Below, in pieces: positions 10,900 to 60,855 of a stretch of DNA of 64,000 bases. The position numbers and the translations under genes are program-made. This DNA is from Mobula hypostoma (taxonomy: Eukaryota): assembly GCF_963921235.1 (NCBI RefSeq), contig NC_086108.1, positions 84,508,001 through 84,572,000 on the forward strand, read 5' to 3'. Within the stretch, counting starts at the first letter, position 1; the number at the start of each line of letters is the position of its first letter. Below the pieces are notes generated by a model. It was given only the letters and a program-made list of their open reading frames with translations, did no database searches and was not told the DNA's origin.

Positions 10900-12866
10900 G
10901 CAACACACACAAAATGCTGGTGGAACACAGCAGGCCAGGCAGCATCTCTAGGAAGAGGTACAGTCGATGTTTCGGGCTGAGACCCTTCGTCAGGACTAAC
11001 TGAAAAAAGAGATAGTAAGAGATTTGAAAGTGGGAGGAGGAGGAGGGATGAAGCTAAGAGCTGGAAAGTTGATTGGCAAAAGGGATACAGAGCTGGAGAA
11101 GGGGGAGGATCATGGGATGGGAGGCCTAGGGAGAAAGAGGGAGGGGAGCCCAGAGGAAGATGGGGAGCAGGCAAGGAGTGATTGTGAGAGGGACAGAGAG
11201 AGAAAAAAGGGGGGTGATAATAAATAAATAAGGGGTGGGAGTAAGAAGGGGAGGAGGGGCATTAGCAGAAGTTAGAGAAATCAATGATCATGCCATCAGG
11301 TTGGCGGCTACACAGACGGGATATAAGATGTTGTTCCTTCAACCTGTGTGTGGCTTCATCTTGACAGTAGAGGAGGCCATGGATTGACATATCAGAATGG
11401 GAAAGGACGTGGAATTAAAATGTGTGGCCACTGGGAGATCCTGCTTTCTCTGGCGGACAGAGCATAGGTGTTCAGCAAAACGGACTCCCAGTCTGCGTCG
11501 GGTCTCACCAATATATAGAAGGCCACACCAGGAGCACCGGATGCAGTATATTACACCAGCCGACTCACAGGTGAAGTGTCGCCTCACCTGGAAGGACTGT
11601 CTGGGGCCCTGAATGGTGGTGAGGAAGGAAGTGTAAGGCCAGGTGTAGCACTTGTTCCGCTTACAAGGATAAGTGCTGGGAGGGAGATCGGTGCGAAGGG
11701 ATGGGGGGGATGAATGGACAAGGGAGTCGCGTAGGGAGCGATCCCTGTGGAAAGCAGAAAGGGGGGGGAGGGTAAGATGTACTTGGTGGTGGTATCCCGT
11801 TGGAGGTGGCGGAAGTTATATGTTGGATCCGGAGGCTGGTGGGGTGGTAGCTGAGGACAAGGGGAACCCTATCCCCAGTGGGGCGGTGGGAGGAAGGGGT
11901 GAGATCAGATGTGCGTGAAATGGGAGAGATGTGTTTGAGAGCAGAGTTGATGGTGGAGGAAGGAAAGCCTCTTTCTTTAAAAAAGGAAGACATCTCCTTC
12001 TTCCTGGAATGAAAAGCCTCATCCTGAGAGCAGATGTGGCGGAGATGGAGGAATTGCGAGAAGGGGGTGGCATTTTAGCAAGATACAGGGTGGGAAGAGG
12101 AATAGTCCAGGCAGTTGTGAGAGTCCGTAGGCTTATAATAGACATCAGTAGATAAGCTGTCTCCGGAGATAGAGACATAAAGATCAAGAAAGGGGAGGGA
12201 GGTGTCAGAAATGGACCAGATAAATTTGAGGGCAGGGTGAAAGTTAATGAAGTCAACAAGCTCAGCATGCATGCAGGAAGCAGCGCCAATGCAGTCGTCG
12301 ATGTAGCGAAGGAAAAGTGGGAGACGGATATCAGTATAGGCTTGGAACATGGACTGTTCCACAAAGCCAACAAAAAGGCAGGCATAGCTGGGACCCATAC
12401 GGTGCCCATGGCTACACCTTTAGTTTGGAGGAAGTGGGAGGAGCCAAAGGAGAAATTATTAAGAGTAAGGACTAATTCCGCTAGACAGAGAAGAGTGGTG
12501 GTAGAGGGGAACTGGTTAGGTCTGGAATCCAAAAAGAAGTGGAGAGCATTGAGATCTTCCTGGTGGGGGATGGAGGTATATAGGGACTGGACATCCATGA
12601 TGAAAATAAGGGGGTGGGGGCCAGGGAACTTAAAATCATTGAAAAAATTCAGAGCGTGAGAAGTGTCACGAACATAGGTGGGAAGGCATTGAACAAGGGG
12701 GGGATAAAACAGTGTCGAGGTATGCAGAAATGAGTTCGGTGGGGCAGGAGCAAGCTGAGACAATAGGTCTACCTGGACAGGCAGGTTTGTGGATCTTGGG
12801 TAGGAGGTAGAAATGGGAAGTGCGGGATGTGGGAACCATGAGGTAGATGGCAGTGGATGGGAGATC
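10900..12866 (-). mobile_element. Penelope-like element (RT + GIY-YIG endonuclease + terminal repeat), 5'-truncated and frameshifted
   Basis: Minus-strand ORFs give [38 protein letters not shown] and FLRYIDD (PLE RT), and VIYCIRC...LLYIGETRRRL...EH...VATHFN (GIY-YIG). Confidence 0.95.
10961..10998 (-). ncRNA. Minimal hammerhead ribozyme motif (AUC cleavage-site variant)
   Basis: Reverse strand reads UAGUC CUGACGA A GGG ucucag CCC GAAAC AUC GACUG. Confidence 0.7.
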
Positions 12867-13114
12867 AATTGGCAGTCAGCATTAAAGCAACACACATTGT
12901 TTGTAAATTACCATATAGTAAACCAATGCTAACAATTAACACCTGATTTCTTTATGCCCAACACAACATAAATGAAGCATATGGCCCTCAATCAAGCAAC
13001 AAGCCCATCTAATATTTTTACTTTTCAAATCCCAATATTAGTTCATGAACATAGTATCAATTACAAATCAAAACAAATTATTGGCTGTAGGTAAGAGTAC
13101 AAATAAGAAAACAC

Positions 13115-13440
13115 CTACTTCTTCCCTCAGGGAGAAGGCTCAGGAGCTTGAAGACTCGTATGGCCAGATTTGGGAACAGCTTCTTTCCAACTGTGATAAG
13201 ACTGCTGAACAGATCCTGACCCGGATCTGGGCTGTACCCTCCAAATATCCGGACCTGCCTCTCGGTTTTTTTGCACTACCTTACTTTCCCTTTTCTATTT
13301 TCTATTTATGATTTAAAATTTAAATTTTTAATATTTACTATTGATTTGTACTCCAGGGAGCGCGAAGCGCAGAATCAAATATCGCTATGATGATTGTACG
13401 TTCTAGTATCAACTGTTGCGACAATAAAGTATAAAGTATA
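13115..13440 (+). mobile_element. Rex1-type LINE 3' end/UTR
   Basis: Has a ...NSFFPTVIRLLN-like remnant and a caataaagtataaagtata tail. Homologous to 37030-37408. Confidence 0.75.
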
Positions 13441-15169
13441 CCCCTCTCAATATTTTCTCCACAGTACCTATATTTGGCAGTCATGCAACATCTTACAGTA
13501 AGAAAACATCATTTCCTTGGAGATTTCATCTAGCTGCCATCAGAAAGTTTCCAGATGTAATGCCTAGTTTGTACTGTAGTCTCACTGAGGCACTGGTACA
13601 ATGGTACAAAATGGCTTGCCAAGAAAAGAAAGAATCCTACATGATGGACAATACATACGTGTGGATACATGAGAACAAGGTCACAGTGAAGCTCTCCACA
13701 ATCAACGAGAACAATAGTAGCCAAATTCCCTCTAGAATAACGCCAGAGTGGCAGGTTATTTGATCAGCTGGCTGTTGACAAAACATAGCTAATACAAAGA
13801 CATGATTCAATCATTTCGGCGGTGGGGGGGCAGAAAAAATGGAAAAGCAATTTTCCAGTTCCAAAGTTACTTCCCTATACTGTATCTATACTACTGTGTA
13901 CTGCTCAAAAAAAATTTCAAATGTAATTATCGTTGATAAATTCACGAAAGGTGGCAATAAGAATCAAAACTCAGAAAAGGTCAACTGTTCATAAAGGGAC
14001 AAAAATAGCGATAAAAAGAAATTCCAGGACTGGCTCCGAGAACATAGAAAAGTACAGCACAGTACAGATCACCACGAGATACCAGCCTCCAAGCAGAATA
14101 TGCTTCATCTACCACCATTTTTTTTACTGTGGCCCAGCCAATTCTGAATCCATGCTGCCAAGTTTCCCCGGATCCCATGCATCATGACTTTCTGAACAAA
14201 TTTTCCATGGGGAACCTTTTCAAATGCCTTATTAAAATCCACATGCACCACATCTACCACTGCAGCTTCCTCAATATATTTTCTCGCTTTCTCAAAAAAA
14301 TTCAATTCATTGAAGTCCAACCCAACATGCTGATTTATATTTCACTTTCAGGAGCAATTAATATGAGACACATATATGGTTTTACTTCAGAAAGCTTTAT
14401 TTTGTGGTTTTACATTTGAAGTGTGCCTTCTCCCTGAAGGTTAAGGAAATTTGGCATGTCTGTATTGATCATCACCACTTTTTATAGATGCATTATTGAA
14501 AGTAACCTACCTGAATGCATCTCTGTTCCACTAAATGACTCTCTGTTCCTCGTCAATCCTGGTTAGGTACATGGTGCTTAGAAAAACAGAGGGCTATGGG
14601 TAAACCTAGGTAGTTCTAAAGTAAGGACATATTCGGCACAGCTTTGTGGGCCGAAGGGCCTGTATTGCGCTGTAGGTTTTCTAAGTTTCTATCACCGCAT
14701 GGTAATTACAACTGCTCTGACCAAAATTGCAGAGCTGTTTATGCAGCTCAGTCCATCATGAAATCCAGCCTCTCTTCCATTGACTCTCCCTACATTTCTC
14801 GCTGCCTTGGAAATGCAGCCAGCTTAGTCAGAGACCCCTCCCGTCTTGGACATTCTCTCTTCTTTCCAACCCCCTCCCCCAAAACCCTCATTCAGTCAGA
14901 AGAAATGAAAGCATGAAAACACGCATCACCAGGTTCAAGTACAGCTTCCCTCCGACCATCGCACAACTCTTGAAAGGAGAAACTGGACTCTTCACCTCAC
15001 AATCTACCCGGTATGACCCTGGCACCTTGTTGTCTACCTACACTGCACTACCTCAATAACTGTAACACTACCTTCTGCAGTCTGTTACTGCTTTGTTCTT
15101 GTTCTTCCTCGAAGTATTTATGCTTTTGAAATGATCAGTGTGGAGGGCTTGCAACACTGAGCTTCTTAT

Positions 15170-15505
15170 AAACAAGAGAAACTCTGCAGGTGCTGGAAAT
15201 CCAAGCAATAAACACAAAATGCTGCAGGAACTCAGCAGGCCAGACAGCACTACCAAAATACAGAGAGGACTCTATCAGAGTCCCCTTTTCCAGCCCTGTA
15301 CGTCTTTCACCAATCAACTTCCCAGCACTTCATCCCATCCCTTCCCAGTTTCACCTATCACTTTATGTTTCTCTCTCCCCTTCCCACCTTTTAAATCTAT
15401 TCCTCATCTTTTTTTTCCTCCAGTCCTGCCAAAGGGTCTTGGCCTGAAACGTACTTTTTTCCATAGATGCTGCCTTGCCTGCTGAATACCTCCAGAATTT
15501 TGCGA
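15170..15505. mobile_element. PLE terminal-repeat remnant with two pieces in inverted orientation
   Basis: 15170-15250 matches the PLE end on the minus strand. 15280-15505 matches it on the plus strand and includes a degenerate hammerhead (cagtcctgccaaagggtcttggcctgaaacgt). Confidence 0.75.
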
Positions 15506-16007
15506 GCTTTTTATTGTATCTTTGTACATGTGCCAATAAGAAACCAATACCAACAAATCCAGAATCTCATTTGTGGAGGTGTGCTAATCAAATGGTTGAA
15601 ATAACTTAATGGAGGCCCAGACTAATTTCGAAGAGTCCACTAAGTGCCTTCACACACTCCAGAACAGCCTGTTACCATGCTGAACACTAAAGAAATTCGA
15701 ACAATGTTCTAAAGAAGCTGCTGATAAAAGAACACACAGGAACCGAAACATTCCACTGAATGTGATGCCTAACATTATTAACAATTCCTGTAAACTGGAA
15801 TAGAGGTCACTGGTATTGTATAGTTAAAACATGACACAAAAGCAGCAGTTATTAGTTCAAAAAGTTGTTAGGTAACAGCTGTAAAAATAAAACAGAGTTT
15901 TTCATTTCTACACAAAATATGAATGTCCGATGAGTGAAATATAAACTGCAAAATGCAAATATTAAGCATTTTATATTTAAAGTGCATATACTGAAACATA
16001 AACAGAC

Positions 16008-16680
16008 CCACACTGTAAAGAGGAATCTCACCTGGTCCAGGAACACCACTGGGATTGCGAAACGGGCCCAGCAGAGATTGCACTTTCTGAGGAAGCTTAA
16101 ACAAGCATCACTCCCCACTAACATCTTAACTACATTCTACAGAGGCGTGGGTGAGAGTGTGCTGACCTTTTGCATCACAACCTGGTACTCCAGCTGCAGT
16201 GCTGTCGACAAAAAAGCCTTGCAGAGGGTGGTTAGGGGAGCAGAGAAGGTTATTGGGGTCTCCCTACCTTCTGTCCAAGACCTCTTTCAGAGTCGATGCC
16301 TCCAGAAGACACGGTACGTCATTAAAGACCCCTCACACCCTCTCCATGAACTGTTTGTTCTTCTGCCATCAGGCAAATGTTACAGGAGCATCAAAACTAA
16401 AACCACAAGGCTACTAAACAGCTTCCTCCCACAAGCAGTCAGACTGCTAAATAGCTGCTCCACCTGACTCTGCTTGGATACTTTTAACTTGCACTGGACA
16501 CTTATAACTTGATTTTAACTGACATGTGGCTGTTGTGTTTTACCATTTATTGTTATGTTTATTATTTAGTGTTGTGTTTGTTATGTTCTGATTACACTGC
16601 TCCTGAGAAACACTGTCTCATTCTGCCCTGCAGAGCTGATGTATGGTTAGAATGACAATAAAGTTTTTTGAATCTTGAAT
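16008..16680 (+). mobile_element. Rex1/Babar-clade LINE 3' fragment
   Basis: ORF 15934..16467 has LTWSRNT...KRAQQRLHFLRKL...DPSHPLHELFVLLPSG...NSFLPQAVRLLN. Tail is aataaag...gaatcttgaat. Confidence 0.9.
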
Positions 16681-18205
16681 AGAAATGGTGGATCATCTCA
16701 AAAAATTACAAACAAACCAGGATTCACTGTTCTCTTTTATTCGTCACGTACTGAATGTTTCCCACTGCATTTGTGTTTTACAAAACCATTTAAGGATACT
16801 GTATGCAAATGTATTTGGTAAAACAGCCAAAGACTATGACATATTTACGTGTATTTCAAAGTTTGCAGATTCAAGGGAATAGGACTGGTGCTGCTCTGTG
16901 GTGTGATATTTTTTCTTCATTCACTTTTAAGTAGTGTTCAAGTATAAAGCTTAATTTAGATTTATCTGCTACTCTCTCATTCCTCATTGTTAATTCTCAT
17001 GTTAACTATCTTGTTATCTCGTCCTTGTAGGGAGCTCAGACCTGAAAAGTCAACTGCAGTCTCTGAGTTAACATTCCGAAACCACAGCTGTAATTATGTG
17101 GTCAATTGTTGCAATGTTGTATTGAACCTGACCTGTATGCAAATGCCATCACTGTATCCACATCACTCAACCGCCTGCACTCTGCGATAATGAGGCAGTT
17201 GATTTTGCTTTTAGATACACATTCACCACAAACCAGCAACATGCAACACAAATGATAATCCTGTGATAATCCTAGGGTCTTCAACTGTGAAATTCCTTCA
17301 ACCATCCCCAAAGACGAAATTGCCAAATGGGATGAGGAGAAAGAGGGAGATAGGTGAGGAAAAAGCAGATAGGCAGAGGATTGAATACCACTGCTGCGCA
17401 ACGAATACTGGAGAGTTAATCACAGTTACCCCAAAGTAATTTGACAGTGAATCATACATATGATCAATATTTTGAGATAAAATCTTTTGTGCTTTCCTAT
17501 GACATGAATCCATTCAGCCCATCGAGTCTCTCAGAATATTCCCTTCATAGAACAATAGGACACTACAGCACAGAAAACAGGCCATTCGACCCTTCTAGTC
17601 TGTACCAAAACATTATTCCGCTAGTCCCATTGATCTTTATCCAGTCCATAACCCTCCAGACCTCTCCCATCCATGTATCTCTCCAATTTACTCTTAAAAC
17701 TTAAGAGTGAGCCCGCATTTACCACGTCAGATGGCAGCTCGTTCCACACTCCCACCACTCTCTGAGTGAAGAAGTTCCCCCTAAACCTTTCTCCTTTCAC
17801 CCTAAAGCCATGTCCTCTCGTATTTATCTCTCCTAATCTAAGTGGAAAGAGCCTATTCACATTTATTCTGTCTATACCCCTCATAATTTTGTAAGCCTCT
17901 ATCAAATCTCCCCTCGTTCTTCTCCACTCTAAGGAATAAAGTCCTAACCTGTTCAATCTTTCCCTGTAACTCAAGTCCTGAAGAGCCAGCAACATCCTAG
18001 TAAATTTTCTCTGCACTTTTTCAATTGACCAGAACTATACTCCAAATTTGGCCTCACCTATGTCTTATACAACCTCCCCATAACATCCCAACTCCTATAC
18101 TCAATACGCAAACATGAGGAAATCTGCAGGTGCTGGAAATTCAACCAAAACACACAAAATGCTGGTGGAACGCAGCAGGCAAGAAAGAATCTATAGGAAG
18201 AAGCA

Positions 18206-18243
18206 CAGTCGATGTTTCAGGCCAAGACCCTTCGTCAGGATTA
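18206..18243 (-). ncRNA. Minimal hammerhead motif, partly degenerate
   Basis: Reverse strand reads UAAUC CUGACGA AGG gucuugg CCU GAAAC AUC GACUG. Confidence 0.6.
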
Positions 18244-19302
18244 ACTGAAACAAGAGACAGTAAGAGATTTGAAAGTGGGAGGGGAAGATCCATAATGATA
18301 GGAGAAGACAGGAGGGTGGGGGATGAAGCTAAGAGCTGGAAAGTTGATTGGCAAAAGGGATACAAGGCTGGAGAAGGGAGGGGATCATGGGACGGGAGGC
18401 CTAGGGAGAAAAAGGGGGAGGGGAGCGCCAGAGGAAGATAGAGAGCAGGCAAGGAGTAATTGTGAGAGGGACAGAGAGAAAAAAGAGAGATAGGAAGAAA
18501 AGGAAAAAATAAAAAAACAATGAATAAATAAATAAATAAGGGATGGGGTAAGAATGGGAGGAGGGGCATTAACGGAAGTCAATGTTATGCCATCAGGTTG
18601 GAGGCTACTCAGACGGAATATAAGGTGTTGTTCCTCCAACCTGAGTGTGGCTTCATCTTGACAGTAGAGGAGGCCGTGGACTGACATGTCAGAATGGGAA
18701 TGGGACGTGGAATTAAAATGTGTGGCCACTGGGAGATCCTTCTTTCTCTGGTGGACAAAGCGTAGATGTTCAGCGAAACGGTCTCCCAGTCTGCGTCGGG
18801 TCTCGCCAATATATAGAAGTCCGCACTGGGAGCACCGGACGCAGTATATCACCCCAGCCAACTCACAGGTGAAGTGTCGCCTCACCTGGAAGAACTGTCT
18901 GGGGCCCTGAATGGTGGTGAGGGAGGAAGTGTAAGGGCATGTATAGCACTTGTTCCGCTTACAAGGGTAAGTGCCAGGAGGGAGATCGGTGGGAAGGGAT
19001 GGGGAGGGGGGGACAAATGGACAAGGGAGTCACGTAGGGAGCAATCCCTGCAGAAAGCAGAGAGAGGGGGAGGGAAAGATGTGCTTAGTGGTGGGATCCT
19101 GTTGGAGGTGGTGGAAGTTACGGAGAATTATATGTTGGACCCGGAGGCTGGTGGGGTGTAGGTGAGGACAAGGGGAACCCTATTCCTAGTGGGGTGGCGG
19201 GACGAAGGGGTGAGAGCAGATGTGCGTGAAATGGGAGAGATGCGTTTGAGAGCAGAGTCGATGGTGGAGGAAGGGAAGCCCCTTTCCTTAAGAAAGGAAG
19301 AC

Positions 19303-20629
19303 TTTTTTAGGTACCTTCAAATACGAAATTATGTTAACCAGAGTTGTAGATATACAGACCTATCAACAGTAGAATTAGAATTTTTCAAGATTCTGAATTC
19401 AGCTTGCAGTTTAATACCTAGTAAATCAGTTTCTCGCCTATATAATGCACTCTCCCATGCTAAAAATGTAAATACACTGTATATTAAAGAGAAGTGGGAG
19501 AAAGAAGCGGGGTTGGTACTTTCAGAGGAGGCTTGGGGGAAAATCTGCAGCTTTCAATGGTCCTCGACTAATTCTTTGACTTGGAGAGAACATTGTTGGA
19601 AAAACATTATAAGATACTTCAAGACCCCATATCAGGAAAAATATAAAGATACAAATGTGATGTGTTGGAGAAGGTGCGGCTCCAAGGAGGCAAATCATTT
19701 TCATATTTTCTGGGATTGCCCTAAATTAAGTCTATTTTGGGAAGGTATTCATAGAACATTAGTTAAGGTACTTAGGTCCCAGATACCTCTGAACTTTGAG
19801 ACGCTCTATTTGGGGCATGTATTGTTCCTTGAACAGAAGGAAGATATAAAGTTGCTGCAGGCCCTCTTAGCGGCAAGTAAGAAATCAATCACTAGAAAAT
19901 GGCTAAATCCAATACCACCTACATTAGAAGATTGGTACGAAATTATCTTGGAAATATTTAAAATGGAAAAGTTGACCTACTCCCTGAGAACTCAAAAAGA
20001 AACATTTTATCAAATCTGGAATAAATGGATTGAATATATAACCCCAATGCGAGCAGACTTTAGATGACTCTCCTAATGATTTATATTGCTCTTCTCATCA
20101 ACACAGTAATATTGCTAACGTAAGCACCCCTAGTCTAAATGTTTGTTGTTTTTTTTATGGAAAATAGAGAATTTTCACAAGTAAAGGGAAAGATTTGGGA
20201 AAGGGATAAAAAAAATGAAAAAATTAAGTAAATAAGTACATAGGGATTGGATAATTATGTCTGCGGGCAGGAACAAGCATGAACAAATTGGGATATAAAC
20301 ACCTACAATGGTTGGTATATAGGCTTGTATGCAACATTTTGGACCAGTGGAAATGGTCCAGAAGGGTTGTATGGAAACTATTATTACCATTTTTCTTAAC
20401 AACTAATTTCATTATTTAGCCTAATAGGTTAGATTTACCACAGTACATAATTATCTATTTAAATGTTTATTTTGCTTTTATATCATCTCAATGTGTACTT
20501 AAGAATGTATAAATAATTGTAGTTTTATACATATAAAAAAATGGAAAAGGTTATATGTGTGAAAAAAGTACATGATAATTGTGAACTCCTTATCCAAATA
20601 AAAATAAAATTTAAAAAAAAGAAAAAAAA
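19303..20629 (+). mobile_element. 5'-truncated L1-clade LINE (second family) with poly(A) tail and 13-bp TSD
   Basis: Encodes DFFRYLQIR...CWRRCGSKEANHFHIFWDC (ORF2 C-terminus). Ends in AATAAA plus an A tail. TSD aagaaaggaagac at 19290-19302 / 20630-20642, at a TT/AAGA site. Confidence 0.95.
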
Positions 20630-21302
20630 AAGAAAGGAAGACATTTCCTTGGTCCTGGAATGAAAGGCCTCATCCTGAGAGCAGATGCTATATACTCAAT
20701 ACTTTGATTTATGAATGCCAGGATGCCAAAAGCCTCCTTTACAACCCTATCTACCTGTGACGCCGCACTTCTCAGTGCCCTACCTCTTTCTCTACCCAAT
20801 TCATTCTCACAGATGCACCAAACTCCTCCTGACTCTACCACCACCTACCCATGACAGGAACAATCAACACAAACTAACCTACCTAGTGGCTCCACACTGG
20901 GATGTGTCAGGAAAACATAACACCCTGGGGCAAAACTCATGAGGTCGCAGGGATAAAGTGCATAGTCCACACAGGCAACACTCCATGAGCGATGTGGCAC
21001 CAGCGCTGACTGCTGCAGAGTGGTGCTGCAATCAATGCCACATCTTACTGCACAATATTAGCACCTGGTTATCTGACACAACACCACAGGGACCCAACCG
21101 TCTGAAAAAGCAGTAGCTGTGGATACTATCTGTAGCTGAGGAGAAAGGAAACAAAACACGCTCGGGAATACTCAACATGTCGGGGGGAGGGGGAGGGAGG
21201 GGGAGGGAGAGAGTAAAGAAAGAAAGAATGGGTTAACTTTTCAGATTAATAGCCCATTACCAGAACTGAAAAAGAAAGCAAAAAAACTTTTAAGTTACAA
21301 GG

Positions 21303-21546: not shown

Positions 21547-21685
21547 GGAAACAGAACAAATGGAAGTCTGCAATGGTTGGGAACCAAGTTTGCTTCAGCA
21601 ATTCTGAGCAAAAGGAGAACAAGCTATCTAACCAGACTGATCTCTGGAGAACCGTGAAATTGGAGGACAATGGAAGAGGGGAAAG

Positions 21686-21818
21686 CAAACACGAGAAAAT
21701 CTGCAGATGCTGAAAATTCAAGCAACACACACAAAAAAATACTGGTGAACGCAGCAGGCCAGGCAGCATCTATAGGAAGAGGTACAGTCAACATTTCGGG
21801 CCGGGATCCTCCGTCAGG
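21686..21818 (-). mobile_element. Solo PLE terminal-repeat fragment with a degenerate hammerhead
   Basis: gcaaacacgagaaaatctgcagatgctg...ggtacagtcaacatttcggg matches the other copies. Confidence 0.85.
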
Positions 21819-22389
21819 GGAAAGCAATACCAGATAGGAACTGTGAGGTGCAGAATCTCACTTTTCCAACATTGTGTGCTTTCCTTCTGTCTGCCTTCAT
21901 TTATCCATTTTCAGGGTGATCAGCGAAGAATACTTGCTGGTAGGCAGAGAGCTGATGATCTGAGAGGCTCTTTCTGTGCTCTATGATCCAGTTACTCTGA
22001 AAGCAAATGTGTCATTCGAATAATCTCGGTCTCTACTCCCAAGGACATCCTCTTCATTGTTTCCATTCCCTTCTCTCTCTCCTCCACCGCTCCCTCCCCA
22101 AATTAAATCAAACTTATTTTCTCATTTTTCTATCAGCCTGATGTGCTTACTCTAATCTCTTATTAGATGCTGCTTTACTTGCTGTGTATCCTCACCATCT
22201 TCTCTTTTCATTCCTGATCTCATGTCACGATAATTTCTATAGTTTCTGTTGAAACAATCCAGTCCAATTCAGTCATGGATTATGGAAACAAGTCCTTCAG
22301 CTCAATTCAGCCATGCCAACCAAGGTGATCATCTAAACTAACATTATTAGCCTGTGTTTGGCATGTATCCCTTTCAACCTTCCCTATTC

Positions 22390-34815: not shown

Positions 34816-35079
34816 CTCTGTATTATTATTTATTATCATTATTATTTGTTCTGCTTTTGTACTTGCATAGTTTTGTCTCCTCTTGCACACTGATTGCTCA
34901 TCAGTCTTTGTGTGTAATTTTTCACTGATTCTACTGCATTTGTTGTATTTCTTGGTTCTGTGAATGCCTGCAAGAAAATAAATCTCCGGGTAGTATATGG
35001 TGACATATACGTACTTTGATAATAATTACTTTGAACTTATCTCCCAGTGCTGATCTGCAGAAGCAACATCAACAATTGC

Positions 35080-37959: not shown

Positions 37960-38242
37960 ATTTTACTGAGATATAGTGCAGAGTAGGCCCTCCTGGTCCT
38001 TCAGGCCTCACCACTCAGCAACCCTCAATTTAACCCTACCCTAATCACAGGACAATTTACAATGACCAATTAACCTAAAAACAGGTAGGTCTGTGGACTG
38101 TGGGAGGAAACCGGAGCACCTGGAGGAAACCCACGCATTCACGGAGAGAACATAAAAATTTCTTACAGGCAGCGGCAGGAATTGAACCTGGGTCGCTGGT
38201 ACTGTAAAGTGTTGTGCTAACTACTACGCTGCCATGCCGCCT
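37960..38242 (-). mobile_element. tRNA-derived SINE (V-SINE/HE1-like)
   Basis: The reverse strand starts ggcggcatggcagcgtagtagttagcacaac...caggttcaattcc. Homologous to 9465-9720. Confidence 0.85.
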
Positions 38243-41029: not shown

Positions 41030-41537
41030 TAACGAATAAACTCTTCCCGGGCTTCCAGCTGGGTACAGGTATCGATTTTAACCAGAATTTTGATGACAAA
41101 CTCAGCCATCTTAATCAGGGATGATGCCATTGTGAATGCAATGTTCTGCTACCACCAGTTTCTCCATTTGGGTTACTAATTCAGTGGTAGCAGAACATTG
41201 CATTTGCAATGGCCATAGGATTGACTTTGACAGCACAAGACTACTGTGCTGTGCTTTTGGGATCGCCTGGTGAAGGAAAGCACTGAAATGAAACTAGAGG
41301 AAAAGAATTTTAACAAAGACAAAGGTCTCGCTCTAAGTAAGAACTGAAATTCAATTGTATACAAGGTGGGACAACGGAAACCTGATTGGATGAGGACTAA
41401 CCAATGAGGAAGGACGGATGATGGGGGTATAAGTACCTCCGGACTAGACATGCCCAGTCATCATCCCTGATAAAGATGACAGAATTTGTCGTCGAAATGT
41501 CAGTTAAAATCGATACCTGTACCCAGCTTGAGCCAGA
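41030..41537 (+). mobile_element. Second Penelope-like family: GIY-YIG C-terminal remnant + terminal repeat, with an inverted partial copy at its 5' end
   Basis: Remnant reads GHRIDFDSTRLL...FWDRLVKESTEMKLEEKNFNKDKGLALSKN. 41057-41126 is the reverse complement of 41459-41528, and 41126-41155 is the reverse complement of 41184-41213. Confidence 0.85.
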
Positions 41538-41857: not shown

Positions 41858-42925
41858 AGAACCAGAATCAGAATCAGGTTTATTACCACCGGCATGTGAC
41901 GTGAAATTTTTTAACTTAGCAGCAGCAGTTCAATACAATATATAATGTAGAAGAAAAAAACAAATATAATAAGTAAATCAATTAGAGTATATGTATATTG
42001 AAAAGATTAAAAATCATGCACAGAAACAGAAACCCTATATATTAAAAGTGAAGTAGTGTCCAAGGATTCAATGTCCATTTAGGAATCGGATGGCAGAGGG
42101 GAAGAAGCTGTTCCTGAATCGCTGAGTGTGTGCCTTCAGGCTTCTGTATCTCCTACCTGATGGTAACAGTGAGAAAAGGGCATGCTCTGGGTGCTGGTGG
42201 TCCTTAATAATAGACGCTGCCTTTCTGACACACCGCACCTCGAAGATGTCCTGGGTACTTTGTAGGCTAGTACCCAAGATGGAGCCGATTAAATTTAAGA
42301 CCCCCTCGGTCCTGTGCAGTAGCCCCCCCCCCATACCAGACAGTGATGCAGCCTGTCAGAATGCTCTCCAAGGTACATCTATATAAGTTTTTGAGTGTAT
42401 TTGTTGACATACCAAATTTCTTCAAACTCCTAATGAAGTATAGCCGCTGACTTGCCTTCTTTATAACTGCATCGATATGTTAGGACCAGGTTAGGTCCTC
42501 AGAGATCTTAACACTCAGGAACTTAAAACTGCTCACTCTCTCCATTTCTGATCCGTCAATGAGGATTGGTATGCGTTCCTTCATCTTACCTGTCCTGAAG
42601 TCTACAATCAGATCTTTTGTCTTACTGACGTTGAGTGCCAGGTTGTTGCTGCAGCACCACTCCACTAGTTGGCATATCTCACGCCTGTATGCCCTCACAT
42701 CACCTGAGATTCTACCGACAATGGTTGTATCATCAGCAAATTTACAGATGGCATTTGAGCTATGCCTAGCCACACAGTCTTGGGTATATAGAGAGTGTTG
42801 ATTGTCAGCGAGGAGATATTATCACCAATCTGCACAGATTGTGGTCTTCCAGTTAGGAAGTTGAGGATCCAATTGCAGAGGGAGGTACAGAGGCCCAGGT
42901 TCTGCAACTTCTCAATCAGGATTCA
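41858..42925 (-). mobile_element. Rex1/Babar LINE fragment
   Basis: ORFs 42480..42773 ([10 protein letters not shown]...LNVSKTK) and 42068..42334 (HALFSLLPSGRRYRSL...NSFFPSAIRFLN). Tail is (ttctga)n. Confidence 0.9.
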
Positions 42926-43329
42926 CTGATTCAATGCCCATTTAGGAATCGGATGGCAGACAGGTAGAAGCTGTTCCTGTACCTCTGAGTGTGTGCCTTC
43001 AGGCCAATGCATTCAAGACCATTTATTCACAATGAATGTGTTTCTTTCTTCTGAAGATTGAAGGATGAGTCTAAACACATGGATGACATTCACCTAGCCT
43101 TAGGAACCTCAGGGAAGTTATAGGAATAGGAAACATATAGGAAATAGTAGAACAGACTAATAACACAATCATCTATGTCAAGGATCACCAGAGCTCATGG
43201 ACTGTGATATACTCATCAACAAAAACCTGTTGTTAAATATAAAAATTCACTGTTAATAAATTCTTCATTTTTTTCCCCAAAAACTACTGCTTCCTATTCA
43301 CTTTGTACTGCCCTATTCTAGTCTTCATA

Positions 43330-44170: not shown

Positions 44171-44394
44171 CACTTCAGTCTGGATGATGTCAATTTTCTA
44201 GAACTGCACTTATCCGGGTAAAGAGTATTATGCCACACTCCCAAATCCTGCCTTGGAGATGGTGCAAGGGCTTTGAAGTGTTAGAATGTCAATCACTCAC
44301 CATTAGATATCCAATATCTGACCTGATTCTGTATCCACAGCGTTTTGAGGGCTGACTTCATTAAGTTTCTGGTAAATGACCTCCTCCCACCCCA

Positions 44395-44537
44395 TACAAC
44401 AGGAATTCTGCAGATGCTGGAAATTCAAGCAACACACATCAAAGTTGCTGGTGAACGCAGCAGGCCAGGCAGTATCTCTAGGAAGAGGTGCAGTCGACGT
44501 TTCAGGCCGAGACCCTTCGTCAGGACTAACTGAAGGA
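44395..44537 (-). mobile_element. Solo ~145-bp PLE terminal unit
   Basis: Essentially the reverse complement of 55859-55991. No PLE coding sequence is attached. Confidence 0.9.
44491..44528 (-). ncRNA. Minimal type-I hammerhead ribozyme motif, intact core
   Basis: Reverse strand reads UAGUC CUGACGA AGG gucucgg CCU GAAAC GUC GACUG, identical to 60754-60791. Confidence 0.8.
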
Positions 44538-45329
44538 AGGAAGAGGAATGTTAACGGTGGGGATAGTGATGATGTTATTGTGATTAAGTCAGTGCTTATT
44601 TGACATTGTACATAAAACATAAGGTACTCCATTCAACAACTGGATTTCTTTTGCTCCTAGAAGTTTCTACCTGCACAGTATCTGCTCTCCATGACTTACT
44701 GAGGCAGCAGCGGAGCACCCTTTGGAACAGGCTCATTCTGTAATGATCCTTGTGACAGCGGAACTGAAAATCTTTCCTACCAAATGCAATAAGCATACAC
44801 AAGTTCATCTCTGTGCAACAGAACACACATCATAGTACAATAATCTCCTTTATTATTCTGTACATTATTTTTGCACAGTATTGCACATGGGTAAATTAAT
44901 ATTGTGTATATTTCTATGCTGTACTTTACTATTAGTTAATATCATATTATCTATTATTGCCAAGTGTGTTGTTAAATGTTGTTGCCGTAACAAAATAACT
45001 TCCCACTCGGGATCAATAAAGTACTTATTATGATTATTAAAAGTCTACTGCCAGCATTAACTCCCATTAAGAGAAGTTGTCATTAAATGTTCAAGATGCA
45101 ACTTTAGACACTGGGAGCACCTCCATTTGATGTTTCTGTCTTACAGAACTGAAATATTCCTGTGGTAAGGTGGAACAAATCAAGACCACTGTTATCTTAC
45201 AACATCAAGTGACTATGTCTGTGAAATTTTAAACATGACAGTTACTGAGCTGCTGAAACATGAGAACAGAATTCAAGAAGGGCAAGTCAACCTACAACGT
45301 ATTTGCTAGTTGGTTTTGTATAAATGTAG

Positions 45330-47743: not shown

Positions 47744-49106
47744 TATGTGCTCTCTTCTTCCCCACCCCACCACCACTTCTGTACTAAAGATGTAAAGACT
47801 GGTAGTTTAACCAACTACAATGAATTGGCTTCAGTGTGTAAGGGAGCAGTAGAATCTGGGAGGAAGTGATGCAATGTGGACACTCTTGGGGGAAATTAGT
47901 GGATGAATGGGATTGTTCTGAGAGCTGCACAGACTCAAAGGGCCAAATGGTCTCCTCTTATGACATAAGACATGTAAAAATACCTGTCAGTTTCAGCCAA
48001 AACAAAAAGGGAATAAATAATCAAACTAGCACACTTTCTACAGGGGTTTAAACCTTTTCTTAAAGGGTTTAACTGAAAATTATATTTGTTTCCTTCTGAG
48101 ATTAATAGATAATTAAAATAACTCAACCACTGGCATTTCCAAGAAGACATTGATAAACACTGTAGCCTTTGGCAAAGTAAGAGAGTACTTCAAAAGTTGT
48201 AAAGCACATTGAAAATCCGAAGAACAGAAATAATTCCTCTTGCTTCAAAATTATTACTGAATAAGATGGCTTCAATAAAGCAAGTTCCATTGGTTAAACT
48301 GAATGAAATAATCCCTCTGGAAAGATAAACCTTTTCTCTATATTTCCTGTTATCTGCCAATTTGGCCATATTCTCAAAGAAATGTGGACAGTGACTTTTG
48401 CAGCACATCCCGAAATGTGAATTTTATTAAAAACTGGTTTGCTCCCATCATCAGGAAGTCTTCGACAAAACCTCTTTTTCTTTCATACAAAAGGCACAGC
48501 TTTTCATTGTTTTAGGAATTAAGCAACTATCTTCACTGAGTTTCCATGACAGCAACATTCAGCTTGTTTTTGTAAAAGTTCCAATTCTGTGCAGCAAGTC
48601 AGAATGTGCCATCAAATTCTATCTGATTCATCAATTAAAATAAATCAACCAAACTTTTACTATCGATCTCTTAGATCAAAACAGTGTCAAAGATATTGGC
48701 AAAACCATTTTCACTCACTTTTTCCTGAGCACTAGAGAACTAAATATGCAGCTATCAACTGGATGTCAGTTAGAAAGTTTAATCACGCACTTCTCTACTG
48801 TAACTGGCTTTGCTTCTTCAGAGCGATTTTGTTATCCACCCAAAAACCCATTTGCTTCAACACTGGAACTTGTGGGCAAGTTAGAGTTGGGTTCCAAAAT
48901 TTTGAAAAGTACAACCAAACTTCCTTTGACAACATTGAATTCAAAGCACGTTTTCAGTTGTGTAAACTGACCTTTCCCAGTGAAAGAACGAAATAATCTG
49001 GCATTGCATGTATTTTCTAAGATTTATCCACCTATTGAGCAATGAAATTAGTTTCTTATTGATGATACACTTATGGAAAAGCCAGGGAACAAAACTCCCA
49101 TCATTA

Positions 49107-49543
49107 GCACAAGAAAATCTGCAGATCCTGGAAATCTAAAACAACACACACAAAATGCCGGAGGAACTCAGCGGGTCAAGCAGCATCTATGCAAAACAGC
49201 AGTTGATGTTTCAGGCCGAGACTCTTCATCAGAACTGGAAAGGAAGGGGGGGGGGGGAGTCAGAAAAAGGTGGTTGGGTGGCGGGGTGAACAGAAGGAAG
49301 AAATATGTGGTTGGTGATAGACGAAACCGGGGGAACAGTGAAAGAGAGGAGAGGGAGCAATTACTAGAGGTTTGAGAAATCGATGTTCATGCCATCAGGT
49401 TGGAGGTTAACCAGACTGAATACAAGGTGTTGCTCCTCCAACCTAAACGTAGCCTCATCGCAGCAGTAGAGGAGGCCGTGGACTAAAATGTCAGAATGGG
49501 AATGGGAATGGGAATGGGATGTAGAATTGAAATGGGTGGCCAT
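49107..49543 (-). mobile_element. PLE 3' fragment (older subfamily)
   Basis: Encodes ATHFNSTSHSHSHSD...RLEEQHLVF...LQPDGMNIDFSN, followed by the terminal repeat. Confidence 0.9.
49200..49237 (-). ncRNA. Hammerhead motif variant with compensatory helix I
   Basis: Reverse strand reads CAGUU CUGAUGA AGA gucucgg CCU GAAAC AUC AACUG. Confidence 0.6.
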
Positions 49544-49546
49544 CAT

Positions 49547-50995
49547 AATGTTCATAATGAGAAGTCGGCCATTCAGCCCATCGAGTCTGCTCCGCAATTT
49601 TATCATGAGCTGGTCCATTCTCCCATTTAGTCCCACTCCCCCGCCTTCTCACCATAACTTTTGATGCCCTGGCTACTCAGATACCTATCAATCTCTGCCT
49701 TAAATACACTCAATGACTTGACCTCCACTGCCGCCCGTGGCAACAAATTTCATAGATTCACCACCCTCTGGCTAAAAAAATTTCTTCGCATTCCTGTTCT
49801 GAATGGGCGCCCTTCAATCCTTAGGTCATGCCCTCTCATACTAGACTCCCCCATCACGGGAAACAACTTTGCCACATCCACTCTGTCCATGCCTTTCAAC
49901 ATCCGAAATGTTTCTATGAGGTCTCCCCTCATTCTTCTAAACTCCAAGGAATACAGTCCAAGAGTGGACAAACGTTCCTCATATGTTAACCCTCTCATTC
50001 CCAGAATCATTCTAGTGAATCTTCTCTGTACCCTCTCCAACGTCAGCACATCCTTTCTTAAATAAGGAGACCAAAACTGCCCACAGTACTCCAAGTGAGG
50101 TCTCACCAGCACCTTATAGAGCCTCAACATCATATCCCTGGTCCTATACTCTATTCCTCTAGAAATGAATGCCAACATTGCATTTGCCTTCTTCACCACT
50201 GACTCAACCTGGAGGCTAACCTTAAGGGTACCCTGTACAAGGACTCCCAAGTCCCGTTGCATCTCAGAACTTTGAATTCTCTCCCCATTTAAATAATAGT
50301 CTGCCCTTCTGACAAGCCTTTTCTATTTCCTGTTGTAGTTTGTAGTCCACATCACTGCAGCTGTTTGGAGGCCTATAAATAACTACCATCAGTGTCCTTT
50401 TACCCCTGCGATTTCATAGCTCAACCCATAAAGATTCTGCACCTTCCGATCCTATATCACCTCTTTCTAATGATTTAATATCATTTCTTACCAATAAAGC
50501 CACACCTCCCCCTCTGCCTACCTTCCTATCCTTCCGATACACCGTGTATCCTTGGATGTTCAGCTCCCAGAGACATGCATCCTTTAGCCACGTCTCAGTG
50601 ATGGCCACGATATCATACCTGCCAATCTGTAGCTGTATGAAAAGATCATCCACCTTATTCCTTATGCTGCGTGCATTTAAGTATAATACCTTAAGACCAA
50701 TATTTGGTACTTTTCGCTTTGACTTCACTGCAACTTTATTGCACTGCAGCTCATCCCAATGGCTACAAATTTGCCCCATCACCTGCCTGTCTTTCCTGAC
50801 ATCTTTACTGCTCACTATCTTAGATTTATTTCTGTTTTCTCCTTCCTCCGCTCTATCATTCCGGTTCCCATCCCCCTGCCAAATAAGTTTAAACCCTCCC
50901 TAACAGCTCTATTAAACTTTCCCGCCAGGATATTGGTCCCCTTCGGTTCAGGTGTAACCTGTCATTTTTGAACAGGTCATACTTCCCCCAGAAGA
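49547..50995 (-). mobile_element. CR1 LINE with a large internal deletion (endonuclease N-terminus joined to the ORF2 C-terminus)
   Basis: ORF 50414..50815 has YLNARSIRNK...YDIVAITETWL...GGGVALLV. ORF 49750..50262 has VRPHLEYC...LEFRRMRGDLIETF. Confidence 0.93.
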
Positions 50996-51829
50996 TCAGG
51001 CAGCAGCAATGGAGTGGAATAAACAGTTTACATTTCGGGCTGAGAACAACTGCAATGGATTTCCAGCATCAGCAGAATCTCTTGTGTTTATCTCATTTTA
51101 AGCCTTCATTCAATCTCAAATAATTATTAAGTCCTTCAGCAATTAATTTAGTAATTTGTGCCAATTTACTTCAATTTGCACAAACAGAATTGGCAGCTAA
51201 ATGTTTCTGTTGCTTCTTTGAACATCAGCAACAGTAATGTCAGTGATGGATATTGAGTTTGTGTTCATGCCTCCGATTAGACAGAACTAGAGCCAATCCA
51301 GTTTTATAGCTGGAGAACACAGACTGTTCATGCTGTACCAAATTGGTGCCTTCCCTGTGAGAATGACACTCAATGTGGGGCACGCAGCTTCCTCTCCTCA
51401 CTGATATCCTCACTGCCTCAGTAAAGCAGTCAGTATAATCAGAAACCCTACCCACCCCAGACTTTCTCAAATTATTCAAAGTACATATACTGTATACCCT
51501 AAGATTTGTCCTCCTGCAGGCAACCAAGAAATGAAGAATCACCATGGTAACTGTCAAAGAAAACATTAAATAATTCTTCCTTCCATCGTTGGGCTTTAGA
51601 TACAAAACCCTGAAAGTATGCAAAACAAGCTTTTCACTGTACCTTGGTACATTTTACAATAATAAACCAATTCCAAAAATAGTACACAAGCCATTATAAA
51701 TTTCCTGGTGAGTCATAGAGCTGAGTTTGATGTAAAAGACATGCTGAAACCTATGACATGAAGTCCAGGACCCATTTCTGTTAAGCTACATCTAGGTTGT
51801 GTTTTGAGAAACTTGGAAACCTTGTGGAC

Positions 51830-52570: not shown

Positions 52571-52677
52571 AAAGCTTAATTCTGGTCTGATGAACCCACT
52601 GGTCTTCCAGCACACTCTGTGTGGGCATTCTGAAAACTCAGATTTTCCAGAACTACAGACTTCCTGACAGGACTCAC

Positions 52678-53280
52678 AAACACAAGAAAATCTGCAGATG
52701 TTGGAAATTCAAGCAACACACACACCCACAAGGAACTCAGCAGGCCAGGCAGCATCTATGGAAACAAGTACAGTCGATGTTTCAGGCCATGATCCTTCTT
52801 TGGGACTGGAGAAAAAAGATGAGAAGACAGTGTAAGAATGTGAGGGGAGAATGTGATAGGTGAAACTGGGACAGAGAGGGGGAGGAGTGAAGAAAGAGCT
52901 GGGAAGTCGATGGTGGAAGAGATACGGGGCTGGAGGAGGAGGAAGAATCAGATAGGGGAGGACAGAAGGCCATGGAAGAAAGAGAAGGGGGAGGTGATGG
53001 ACAGGTACAGAGACAAGGTGAGGGGGGGAAACAGGAATGGGGAATTGGGAATGGTGAGGGGGGGGGCATTACCAGAAGTTTGAGAAATCGATGTTCATGC
53101 CATCAGGTTGGTGGCCACCCAGATAGAATATAAAGTGCTGCTCCTCCAACCTGAGTGTGGCCTCATTGTAGCAGTAGAATCGGCCATAGACTGACATGTC
53201 AGACTAGGAATGAGAAGCAAAATTGAAATGGGTGGCCACTGGCAGATCCCACTTTTTCTGTCAGGCGGAGCGTAGGTGCT
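52678..53280 (-). mobile_element. PLE 3' fragment with a decayed hammerhead
   Basis: Homologous to 10900-11470 and 49107-49543. Confidence 0.88.
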
Positions 53281-55679: not shown

Positions 55680-57205
55680 AGAATCAGATTTAATATCATT
55701 GGGCTACATCGTGAGATTTGTTAACTTTACAGCAACAGTACAATGAAATACATGATAAATAAATACACAGAAAAAACTGAATTACATTAAGTATATCTAT
55801 GTCTATTAAATAATAAAAACCAGTAGTACAAAACAAAACAAATAAAAAAGTTGCAAATTAGTCCTGACGAAGGGTCTGGGCCTGAAACGTCAACTGTACC
55901 TCTTCCTAGAGATGCTGCCTGGCCTGCTGCGTTCACCAGCAACTTTGATGTGTGTTGCTTGAATTTCCAGCATCTGCAGAATTCCTGTTGTTTGCAAATT
56001 AGAGTTCATGGGTTCAATGTCCATTTTGAAATCAGATGGCAGAGGGGAAGAAGCTGTTCCTGAACCACTGAGTATGTACCTTCAGGCGTCTGTACCTCCT
56101 TTCTGATGGTAACAGTGTGAAGACAGCATGCCCTGGCTGCTGGTGAGCATTAATGATGGACGCCACCTTCCTAAGGCACCGCTCCTTGAAGATGTCTTGG
56201 ATACTATGGAGGCTGGTACCCATGATGGATGTGACTAATTTTACAAGTTTCTACAACTTGTACAGTAGCCCTCACCCCATACCAGACCGTGATGCAGCTA
56301 ATCAGAATGCTCTCCACAGTACACTTGTAGAAGTTTGAGTATTTTAGTTGACAATCCAAATCTCTGAATGAAATATAGCCACCATCTTGCCTTCTTTATA
56401 GCTGCATCAATACGTTGTGTCCAAGTTATTTCCTTAGAGATATTGATACCCTGGAACTTGAAATTGCTCACTCTCTCCACTTCTGATCCCTCTATGATTA
56501 TTGGTTTTTTGTTCCCTCGTCCTACCCTTCCTGAAGTCCACAATCAGCTGTTGGTCTTGCTGACACTGAGTATAAGGTTGTTGCCGTGACACCACTCACG
56601 AACTGATTTATCTCACTCCTGTATGCCCTTTCATCACCATCTAAAATTCTGCCAACAATGGTTGTCCAATCACCAAACTTATAGATGGCATTTGAGCTAT
56701 GCCTAGTCACCCAGTCATGGATGTAGGGAGTCAAGCAGTGGGCCAAGCACAGATCCCTGTGGTGGGTCAGTGTTGATTGTCAGTGAGGTGGAAACGTTAT
56801 TTCCAATCCATGCAAATTGTGGTTTTCTAGTGAGGAAGTCAAGGATCCAGTTGCAGAGGGAGGCACAGAGGCTTAGGTTCTGTAGCTTTTCGATCAGCAC
56901 TGTAGGAACGATAGTGATAAATGCTGAGCTATAGTCAATAAACAGCATCCTAACATAGATATCTGTATTGTCCAGGTGGTCCAAGGCCACATGGAGAGCC
57001 ATTCAGATTGTTGTTGACCTTTTGTGGCGATAGGCAAATAGCAGTGGGTCCAGGTCATTCCCGAAACAGGTGTTGTTTCTATCTATGACCAACCTCTCAA
57101 AGCACTGCATTGCCATAGATATGAGTGCTACTGGCTGATAGTCGTTAAGGTAGCTCACACTGATCTTCTTGGGCACTGGTGTAATTTTTGCCCTTTTGAA
57201 GCAGC
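55680..57205 (-). mobile_element. Rex1/Babar LINE fragment
   Basis: ORF 56715..57002 has LDHLDN...[13 protein letters not shown]...[13 protein letters not shown] 56032..56223 has LLPSERRYRRL...NSFFPSAI. Confidence 0.92.
55859..55896 (+). ncRNA. Minimal hammerhead motif heading a solo ~130-bp insert (55862-55991)
   Basis: Reads UAGUC CUGACGA AGG gucuggg CCU GAAAC GUC AACUG. The insert is flanked by ttgcaaattag at 55851-55861 and 55992-56002. Confidence 0.72.
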
Positions 57206-59949: not shown

Positions 59950-60482
59950 TGAAGATCATTTGGGTGATCCAGCACTTTGCTGTCCCCAAGAGGATTCTGG
60001 GAGGCAGCGAGTGCGATCGTCGTGGCGAGGAGGCTATGGGGATGTTCAACTCTATTTTGCTGATTAAAGCTTCCATTGTTCACCAAATAAAGAGCCGAGG
60101 GAGACTGAAACATCGAGGTGAATGCTGAAGGCGAGCACTGGCTGCCTGCCTGCCTTTTAATCGCTCTGCTGCCAGAGAGGAGAGACTGTTGGAGACCAGA
60201 GGATGCTACCAAGGTTTTCTGCATTGTGTATATGGATATGGACTTGACTAGGGACTCTTCTTTTTTTTATATGTTCTGTGTTTTTTGCCCGATCTTACTC
60301 AGGGTTTTTTTTTGTGTGAGGGAAAGGAATTTGGTGGTCAATGTTCAGTTTTTGTTTGTTATTTTGTGTGGAGATCTGGGGGTTGATGATCATGTTGCTG
60401 TTCTTTTTTTTCTGAGTTTCGGGACTATCCGGAGATGAAGAATTTCAGAGTTGTATACTTTGATAATAAATGAACCTTTGAA
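59950..60482 (+). repeat. Non-coding repeat with a Rex1-type tail (family Y)
   Basis: Ends gaatttcagagttgtatactttgataataaatgaacctttgaa, like the Rex1 tails at ~8860 and ~35020. Confidence 0.55.
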
Positions 60483-60559
60483 TCCGATTTGAATTTTTAT
60501 TCATTCTATTTTCAATGAAAGGAAATTATCTGCAAATAAACACTACTAAGTCCAAAGCC

Positions 60560-60855
60560 TCTTCCGGTGATGCCTACACCGAAGAAGTTTAGATCCTCTC
60601 TTCGACGGGAGTTCAGTGAAACCAACTCTCACTGCTCCCCATCTGTAATTTCTTCGGCTCTTCAACTTTCCAACCACATTTTGACTCTCTTATCATTTTG
60701 GATCTCCCCCTCCCCCTCCCACTTTCAAATCTCTTACTAACTCTTCCTTCAGTTAGTCCTGACGAAGGGTCTCGGCCTGAAACGTCGACTGTACCTCTTC
60801 CTACAGATGCTGCCTGGCCTGCTGCACTCACCAGCAACTTTGATGTGTGTTGCTT
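60560..60855 (+). mobile_element. Chimeric insert: ~130 bp of unrelated sequence + PLE terminal repeat, bounded by a 13-bp direct repeat
   Basis: taagtccaaagcc occurs at 60547-60559 and 60856-60868. 60690-60855 matches the PLE terminal repeat. Confidence 0.85.
60754..60791 (+). ncRNA. Minimal type-I hammerhead ribozyme motif, intact core; predicted cleavage after C60786
   Basis: Helix I is UAGUC/GACUG, followed by CUGACGA, helix II AGG/CCU, GAAA, a loopless palindromic helix III (ACGU) and a GUC triplet. Confidence 0.8.

Follow-up and report, generated by a model that had tools for sequence, protein, structure and literature searches.

Minimal type-I hammerhead motifs in dispersed, mostly decayed copies of a probable Neptune-type Penelope-like retroelement of the ray Mobula hypostoma

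The 64,000-nt segment of the genome of the ray Mobula hypostoma analyzed here (contig NC_086108.1, positions 84,508,001 to 84,572,000; hereafter, the window) contains ten copies of a short motif that very probably represents a minimal type-I hammerhead ribozyme (min-HHR; HHR for hammerhead motifs in general) embedded in the pseudo-long terminal repeat (pLTR) of a Penelope-like retroelement (PLE) that is of the Neptune type and has been highly amplified. Motifs of this kind have been known from metazoan PLEs since 2014 and, judging by its sequence features, the window motif is one of them. All ten copies, seven listed by name and three as decayed, were correctly located in the original prediction, as direct reading of the sequence confirms, and the claim of minimal type-I hammerheads in a PLE terminal repeat, with a loopless helix III of a kind presumed to require dimers, is borne out by the anatomy of the motif and by matches to PLE proteins. 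Most of the window copies appear to be broken leftovers, with decay of the CpG type, and are unlikely to cut RNA.

In this motif, helix I is formed by U/C-AGUC and GACUG, the core consists of CUGANGA and GAAA, and helix III is the loopless palindrome ACGU. The core (C3U4G5A6N7G8A9, G12A13A14A15.1, U16.1 and H17) is intact in seven of the ten copies, and three retain both the core and the palindrome. The units at 44491 and 60754 (copies are denoted by their first coordinate; Table 1) are identical over all 38 nt and both have an intact core, as predicted, and C17 of the latter is indeed nucleotide 60786. An extra A follows A9 in all ten copies, and G10.1 pairs with C in three copies and with U in seven. 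The formula originally proposed, AGG-N7-CCU with ACGU, therefore describes part of the set: position 11.1 is C rather than U in those three copies, and ACGU is kept in 44491, 55859 and 60754 but lost in the other four of the seven copies initially taken as good. The helix II register originally drawn (A-U, G-C, G-C and a 7-nt loop) is the weaker one, pairing in five of the eight distinct units as opposed to all eight for the register with the bulged A. According to the nearest-neighbor model, the bulged-A register gains 4.2 kcal/mol over the original one in 10961 and in 35143, and in the U11.1 copies the two registers lie within 0.3 kcal/mol; helix II here has 4 bp. The published min-HHR consensus (PMC4209133) combines type I topology, an extra nucleotide separating positions 9 and 10.1, the pair G10.1-C11.1 and palindromic 15.2-16.2, and the anatomy of the window motif agrees with these four features. 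An extra A at this spot is tolerated in a viroid hammerhead, with a moderate loss of rate (PMC3705267).

A hidden Markov model (HMM) derived from the copies recovered all ten motifs in the window, with E-values from 1e-46 to 2e-22, although this model matches its own input by construction (the best E-value in the reversed-window control was 1.2); it additionally detected a tail-only piece and an inverted scrap (Table 1). A 34-nt pattern with at most three mismatches had six matches in the window and none in 100 shuffles. The full minimal-hammerhead structure descriptor is passed by two of the ten copies, 44491 and 60754, which sit on opposite strands, and by nothing in 100 shuffles; with the palindrome requirement dropped, four copies pass. 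Seven copies are on the minus strand and three on the plus strand, a split that is not significant (p=0.34). A search for outside copies by DNA pattern yielded one locus from a virus, eight from prokaryote genomes and 32 from metagenomes, none with a hammerhead; these were dropped as chance matches because all 41 matched only around a 20-mer.

The identity of the carrier can be gleaned from what precedes the motif. On the element strand, the order is reverse transcriptase (RT), a CX4CxxC linker, the GIY-YIG endonuclease (EN), a pyrimidine-rich untranslated region (UTR), the hammerhead motif and a tail. The end of the RT/GIY-YIG open reading frame (ORF) lies upstream of the motif in four copies (10961, 18206, 49200 and 52771), with ~270 nt of the pyrimidine-rich UTR between the two, on the same strand. 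Over 150 aa, the 18206 piece shares 88% identity with a PLE-type protein of M. hypostoma (P0001); its identity to proteins of Hypanus sabinus is 74-77%. A tblastn search with ray PLE proteins and full-length relatives produced RT/EN matches at 11268-12866, 18568-19316, 49334-49606 and 53063-53278, the first of which is collinear, if frameshifted, with the ray proteins and the full-length relatives and runs, from 12866 to 11268, through the RT to a C-terminal GIY-YIG domain; one relative, P0021, matches both RVT_1 and GIY-YIG of Pfam. The linker CKRNKCYTC, present in the 18206 copy and in P0001, fits the pattern CX2-5CxxC, which is found in 97 of the 103 relatives with a recognizable EN motif (148 examined) and is a mark of Neptune and Nematis (PMC8557442). 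The CCHH motif named in the same source as a PLE endonuclease feature can be traced in the translations of 11342-11815 and 18388-19029 as C-x2-C after VIY, H in FAEH and H in VATHF, with the residues assigned by eye. The copies fall into two subfamilies, one of seven copies that are 84-96% identical to the majority sequence (hammerhead and tail) and one of three copies that are 77-82% identical. With intervals set by hand, the family occupies ~9% of the window (5,869 of 64,000 nt), and 3,647-7,875 contigs per run align to one 671-nt copy (four runs, contigs only), so that a high genome-wide abundance of the motif is plausible.

Several results weigh against this assignment, in whole or in part. 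The hammerhead search of the window, which had been suggested along with the original prediction, was successful with the structure descriptor but not with Rfam, where no hammerhead family is among the 11 matches at E<=10, all of them unrelated to the motif and below the gathering scores. Covariation among the eight distinct units amounts to one double change, a level reached in 125 of 500 shuffles. U11.1 is the majority state (seven of ten copies; 68-78% of contig depth, a measure based on depth-weighted contigs from four runs, one of them probably DNA, biased to the reference, 40/116 positions), leaving the canonical G-C closing pair in the minority. The Pfam matches of the window pieces to GIY-YIG (E=6-7e-4) are under the cut-off, and RVT_1 has no match to the broken PLE RT pieces in the window. 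The Neptune-type call is made from the linker motif, which is common to Nematis, rather than from a tree with named references. Finally, the 64-kb window contains no full-length or tandem copy and no paired pLTRs in direct repeat.

The copies are separate insertions, nearly all of them 5'-truncated, that belong to at least two subfamilies. Target-site duplications (TSDs) flank two of the short copies (Table 1), and an automatic search detected no clear TSD at the other eight of the ten copies. The 3' ends fall into two classes, located ~67 nt (10961, 35143 and 60754) or ~100 nt (18206, 21785, 44491, 49200, 52771 and 55859) past C17; 15421 ends earlier. These two points, ~35 nt apart, are in line with the optional tail of 30-40 bp that a pair of internal RT start sites delimits in PAc, the Poseidon element of Anolis carolinensis (Frangieh 2024, PMC11167929). 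Because sequence upstream of C17 is present in all ten copies, the templates were uncut RNA, and unprocessed RNA is the main substrate of PAc insertion (PMC11167929); a copy beginning exactly at the cleavage site was not found in the window. An inverted segment lies beside a tail at 15170-15510 and 50985-51092, an arrangement that resembles twin-priming or the known inverted PLE pLTRs.

The short, 135-170-nt copies (21785, 44491, 55859 and 60754) raise the question of whether they are a unit in their own right, a self-spreading non-autonomous element similar to SINEs or retrozymes. Three of the ten copies begin no more than ~15 nt from the hammerhead's 5' edge, and retrozymes related to pLTRs are reported, one chondrichthyan being among the hosts (Li et al., bioRxiv 10.64898/2026.07.22.740005). 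Nevertheless, such a unit is quite improbable: the 5' ends of the short copies differ, two of them falling at 3-4-nt microhomology with the target site, their 3' ends are distributed over both end classes, none is tandem, and their sequence runs on into the UTR and ORF in six other copies. The 35143 copy is, by its sequence, an internal-deletion derivative, with an N-terminal part that matches residues 69-91 of P0021 (E=8e-8). This stretch (35053-35560, minus strand) could stand for a non-autonomous internal-deletion subfamily.

A mechanism for the origin of truncated PLE insertions of this kind can be drawn from published work on PLEs. Tandem master copies would be transcribed, and the element protein would nick DNA and prime internally, at either of two sites ~67 or ~100 nt downstream of the cleavage site; the cDNA would then copy back through the uncut hammerhead, usually halting early, which would leave many short ends that bear the HHR. 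The master transcript would be cut after GUC only with the help of the element protein or as a double hammerhead, in which ACGU would pair with the ACGU of the next repeat and the strands of helix I would be swapped. Under this scheme, the dispersed single copies would be passengers, and meaningful cleavage of these is not expected.

The suggestion of pairing and cleavage between copies that share a transcript fits the window poorly. The complete copies are on opposite strands, the palindromes are mostly broken, neighboring same-strand copies are separate insertions with 3.6-40 kb of unrelated DNA between them, and no tandem array in the window contains the motif; because the copies are dispersed rather than tandem, dimer cleavage on one transcript is unlikely. 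The strongest version of this proposal, that dispersed copies are active in host transcripts, with a same-strand pair cutting pre-mRNA as a double hammerhead, would best be represented by 55859 and 60754, which are 4.9 kb apart, both on the plus strand, and both keep the core and ACGU. By inspection, the enzyme half of 55859 could pair with the GUC site of 60754 in a strand-swapped dimer, and min-HHR dimers do cleave in vitro, if weakly, whereas single min-HHRs show no cleavage (PMC4209133). The energetics point in the opposite direction: the nearest-neighbor model assigns -9.0 kcal/mol to the 55859/60754 double hammerhead, whereas two monomer rods reach -20.7 and a duplex of non-hammerhead type -31.3, and two misfolded monomers are favored over the double hammerhead by 10-12 kcal/mol, although this model understates the active fold because tertiary contacts of the core are ignored. 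In the predicted monomer rods, GACG of the core pairs with CGUC, and with the native flanks, including those in 60740-60810, the pyrimidine tract is predicted to pair with the core region and break the hammerhead fold. Of the 252 listed ORFs, 204 were scanned against Pfam, with only retroelement families at the cut-off, a scan that short exons would escape; neither a transcript nor a host exon was detected. In PAc, there are no reads ending at the cleavage site (PMC11167929). Activity of the dispersed copies in host transcripts is, accordingly, highly improbable.

The pattern of decay is consistent with most copies being remnants. Outside the core, 26 of 97 cells at CpG positions depart from the majority state, compared with 57 of 585 at non-CpG positions, and the palindrome is lost in six window copies, in five of these by a CpG-type change. 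Within the core, 4 of 89 non-CpG cells differ, compared with the same 57 of 585 elsewhere (Fisher p=0.12, with related copies), and because of this relatedness, the comparison is weak either way as a test of core conservation. By contig depth, position 11.1 is C in 22-32%, loop position 3 is C in 88-90%, position 2.3 is G in >99%, and position 16.2 is G in 68-74% even though the reference copy has A. The interpretation of U11.1 as plain CpG decay was rejected, given that the change is one-sided (seven TG and no CA) and far commoner than the decay of neighboring CpGs; a subfamily variant is more likely.

These data bear on yet another possibility, namely, that the motif is vestigial even in the master copies, its sequence being kept through overlap with splice, promoter or RT-initiation signals. 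The majority state, U11.1, weakens helix II (-2.5 compared with -5.1 kcal/mol), the monomer is predicted to fold as a rod that sequesters the core, insertion of PAc in vitro is unimpaired by HHR mutations (PMC11167929), and conservation of the core is not significant among the window copies. Against these points stands the preservation of the core, of helix I (with U.G or C-G at its end) and of helix II in both subfamilies. Furthermore, at the CpG formed by positions 11.1 and 12, C-to-T is seen in seven copies and G12-to-A in none, a bias consistent with selection for G12 in master copies, with the qualification that the copies are not independent. A vestigial motif in the masters is, on balance, unlikely, and a hammerhead in the pLTR of a Neptune-type PLE is the preferred reading.

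The pyrimidine-rich region between the ORF and the motif invites another, doubtful interpretation: the ~270-nt UTR might be a retained spliceosomal intron, with the donor on the ORF stop (after ...FSNFR) and an acceptor AG that falls within helix I, on its 5' strand. In eight of the ten copies, an AG lies within 8 nt of C3, following a 30-nt stretch with 77-93% pyrimidines, and no further AG occurs for ~45-135 nt; a branch-like motif is present in seven copies, taking the form TACTAAC in 60754. The ORF stop overlaps the donor-like GTAAT in 52771 and 49200, and this site is altered in 10961 and 18206. Two predicted models of H. sabinus, XP_059827357.1 and XP_059827355.1, have sequence in common as far as ...FSNFR and then diverge, as use of the donor would predict; four other gene models end at FSNFR. 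On the other hand, any AG at the end of a pyrimidine-rich UTR will resemble an acceptor, and helix I requires this AG in any case. Two results also speak against the intron: the peptide PDEGSRPETST occurs in one of four candidate gene models (P0007), which reads through the acceptor, and the join of FSNFR to PDEGS is found in none of the 15 proteins, from rays or other organisms, that have the EN end. Contig joints from 18240 to 18587/18590 (one contig per run, 1-2 rows per run) are located at the expected splice join, but were not counted as splicing; they are ambiguous because the alignments stop there anyway, owing to a private change of the reference at 18241, and the consensus of the loose ends is genomic. 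If the intron were real, splicing would take helix I from five pairs down to three and eliminate the stop, letting the endonuclease read in frame into PDEGSRPETST, making the apparent pseudo-ORF a real spliced extension, and splicing would act as a switch between the ribozyme state and the protein form in a vertebrate PLE. As a separate observation, the NCBI gene models P0007, P0002, P0008, P0005 and P0013 of Mobula and Hypanus, which are named after host genes (STARD3NL, DIPK1C, CHID1 and ATP synthase C3), absorb the ORF or the terminal repeat of this PLE, through either annotation contamination or exonization.

The min-HHRs of metazoan PLE pLTRs were described in Xena, Poseidon and Neptune elements of fishes, coelacanth and Xenopus (Cervera and De la Pena 2014, PMC4209133). 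The window motif shares with these the type I topology, the CUGANGA/GAAA/GUC core, the extra nucleotide between A9 and G10.1, the 5-bp helix I, the loopless palindromic helix III, the location in a terminal repeat and the occurrence mostly as single dispersed copies. It differs in that G10.1-U11.1 is the commonest form and the host is a ray, and, from the Schistosoma motifs, in having a helix II of 4 bp rather than 7-8 bp. If the window is typical, a density of ten copies per 64 kb greatly exceeds the 4,000-9,000 copies per genome of coelacanth and Xenopus given in the same source. As in PAc, the HHR is at the junction of pLTR and ORF, RT appears to start at two sites, and insertion appears to proceed from uncut RNA; unlike the window element, Poseidon lacks the CX2-5CxxC linker. 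The PAc ORF begins at stem II, and its HHR activity has been measured, with cleavage only in the presence of the protein (PMC11167929), whereas the window motif is known from sequence alone. The candidate intron recalls that in the pLTR of Drosophila virilis Penelope, which ends at helix I, in that an acceptor-like AG, with its pyrimidine tract and a branch-like motif, falls on the 5' strand of this helix; the D. virilis intron is, however, demonstrated, 75 bp long and located in the 5' UTR, whereas the candidate spans ~270 nt from the ORF stop (PMC4209133, PMC8557442). The non-LTR retrozymes (bioRxiv 10.64898/2026.07.22.740005), similarly, contain type-I HHRs related to pLTRs and occur in vertebrates, including one chondrichthyan, but are head-to-tail tandem and have no ORF, whereas the window copies are non-tandem and five of the ten run into the PLE ORF. 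No cartilaginous fish is named in two supplementary files of PMC4209133 (file 1 being outside the search), and no paper on the motif in sharks or rays was found in literature searches of incomplete coverage that included few subscription journals; passages of a whale-shark preprint mention PLE expansion only.

These findings add rays to the hosts of hammerhead-bearing PLEs and account, through the PLE terminal repeat, for the peptide-like string that is also present in the ray gene model P0007. If the density in the window holds genome-wide, the family offers a good natural data set for the in vivo role of PLE hammerheads: the many copies would allow tests for a peak of 5' ends at the cleavage site, for strand bias in genes and for selection on the core in the master lineage. 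The intron, if real, would connect splicing with the state of the ribozyme and with read-through of the ORF in a vertebrate PLE.

Table 1. Putative hammerhead motifs, PLE pieces and insertions in the window
Feature	Position	Strand	Description	C17	TSD
min-HHR	10961-10998	-	intact core, G10.1-C11.1, palindrome lost (helix III ACAU)	10966	
min-HHR	18206-18243	-	core intact, helix I mismatch, ACAU	18211	
min-HHR	35143-35180	-	intact core, G10.1-C11.1, palindrome lost (helix III AGGU)	35148	
min-HHR	44491-44528	-	complete, G10.1-U11.1, ACGU	44496	
HHR	49200-49237	-	decayed: U2.1-A1.1, helix II mismatch, ACAU		
HHR	55859-55896	+	core intact, ACGU, C2.1-A1.1 mismatch (first helix I pair)	55891	
min-HHR	60754-60791	+	complete, same as 44491 unit	60786	
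HHR	21785-21822	-	dead: A9 changed, helix I 5' strand absent		
HHR	52771-52808	-	dead: core changed		
HHR	from 15421	+	dead: core changed, 7-nt deletion over cleavage site		
Longest PLE copy	10897-12866	-	5'-truncated: frameshifted RT, CX4CxxC linker, GIY-YIG ORF, ~270-nt UTR, HHR, short 3' end		
PLE copy	18100-19316	-	5'-truncated: RT thumb, linker, GIY-YIG, 3' UTR, HHR, long tail		
PLE copy	49104-49606	-	older subfamily: EN end, 3' UTR, decayed HHR, long tail		
PLE copy	52677-53280	-	older subfamily: EN end, donor-like site at ORF stop (53072), UTR, dead HHR, long tail		
PLE piece	35081-35560	-	N-terminal region of ORF (~35410-35560) joined directly to 3' UTR and HHR		
Internal PLE ORF fragment	20630-20695	-	isolated, without HHR		
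Insertion	21686-21818	-	~133 nt, begins at HHR core		12 bp, 21816-21827 / 21677-21688
Insertion	55858-55995	+	~135 nt, begins at helix I		11 bp, 55851-55861 / 55992-56002
Insertion	44393-44540	-	~148 nt: end of pyrimidine tract, HHR, long tail		
Insertion	60686-60855	+	~170 nt: branch-point-like TACTAAC, pyrimidine tract, AG, HHR, short 3' end		
Older-subfamily 3' UTR and dead HHR	15283-15510	+	motif from 15421		
Tail-only piece	15170-15249	-	inverted, upstream of 15421 copy		
Scrap	50985-51092	.	decayed: HHR 3' half on -, then tail on +		

The window is rich in other repeats as well. A 301-aa frame similar to the C-terminal part of LINE ORF2 (19162-20064, plus strand) runs opposite to the 18206 PLE copy and overlaps its 5' part. 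LINE-type ORF2 pieces at 2-2811 (plus strand), one of 666 aa with RVT_1 (E=7e-39) and one of 280 aa with zf-RVT, belong to an apparently fairly young non-LTR element that extends past the left end of the window. An RT family with a Pfam ALKBH8_N match, which we take to be Rex/Babar-like, is represented at 6863-8069, 38349-38981, 15934-16467, 42051-43004 and 55997-56897. A near-perfect hairpin with a ~28-bp stem (41124-41215) has sub-threshold miRNA matches on both strands and lies inside an inverted repeat (41054-41126 / 41459-41531); it is probably part of a small inverted-repeat element. A weak tRNA-like match at 38167-38233 (minus strand; 23 bits, below gathering) falls within a repeated 230-nt sequence (9486-9705 and 37998-38225) and is likely to be the head of a tRNA-derived SINE. 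Another repeat, with 85-92% identity, occurs at three places, 13198-13443, 37030-37416 and 35761-35890.

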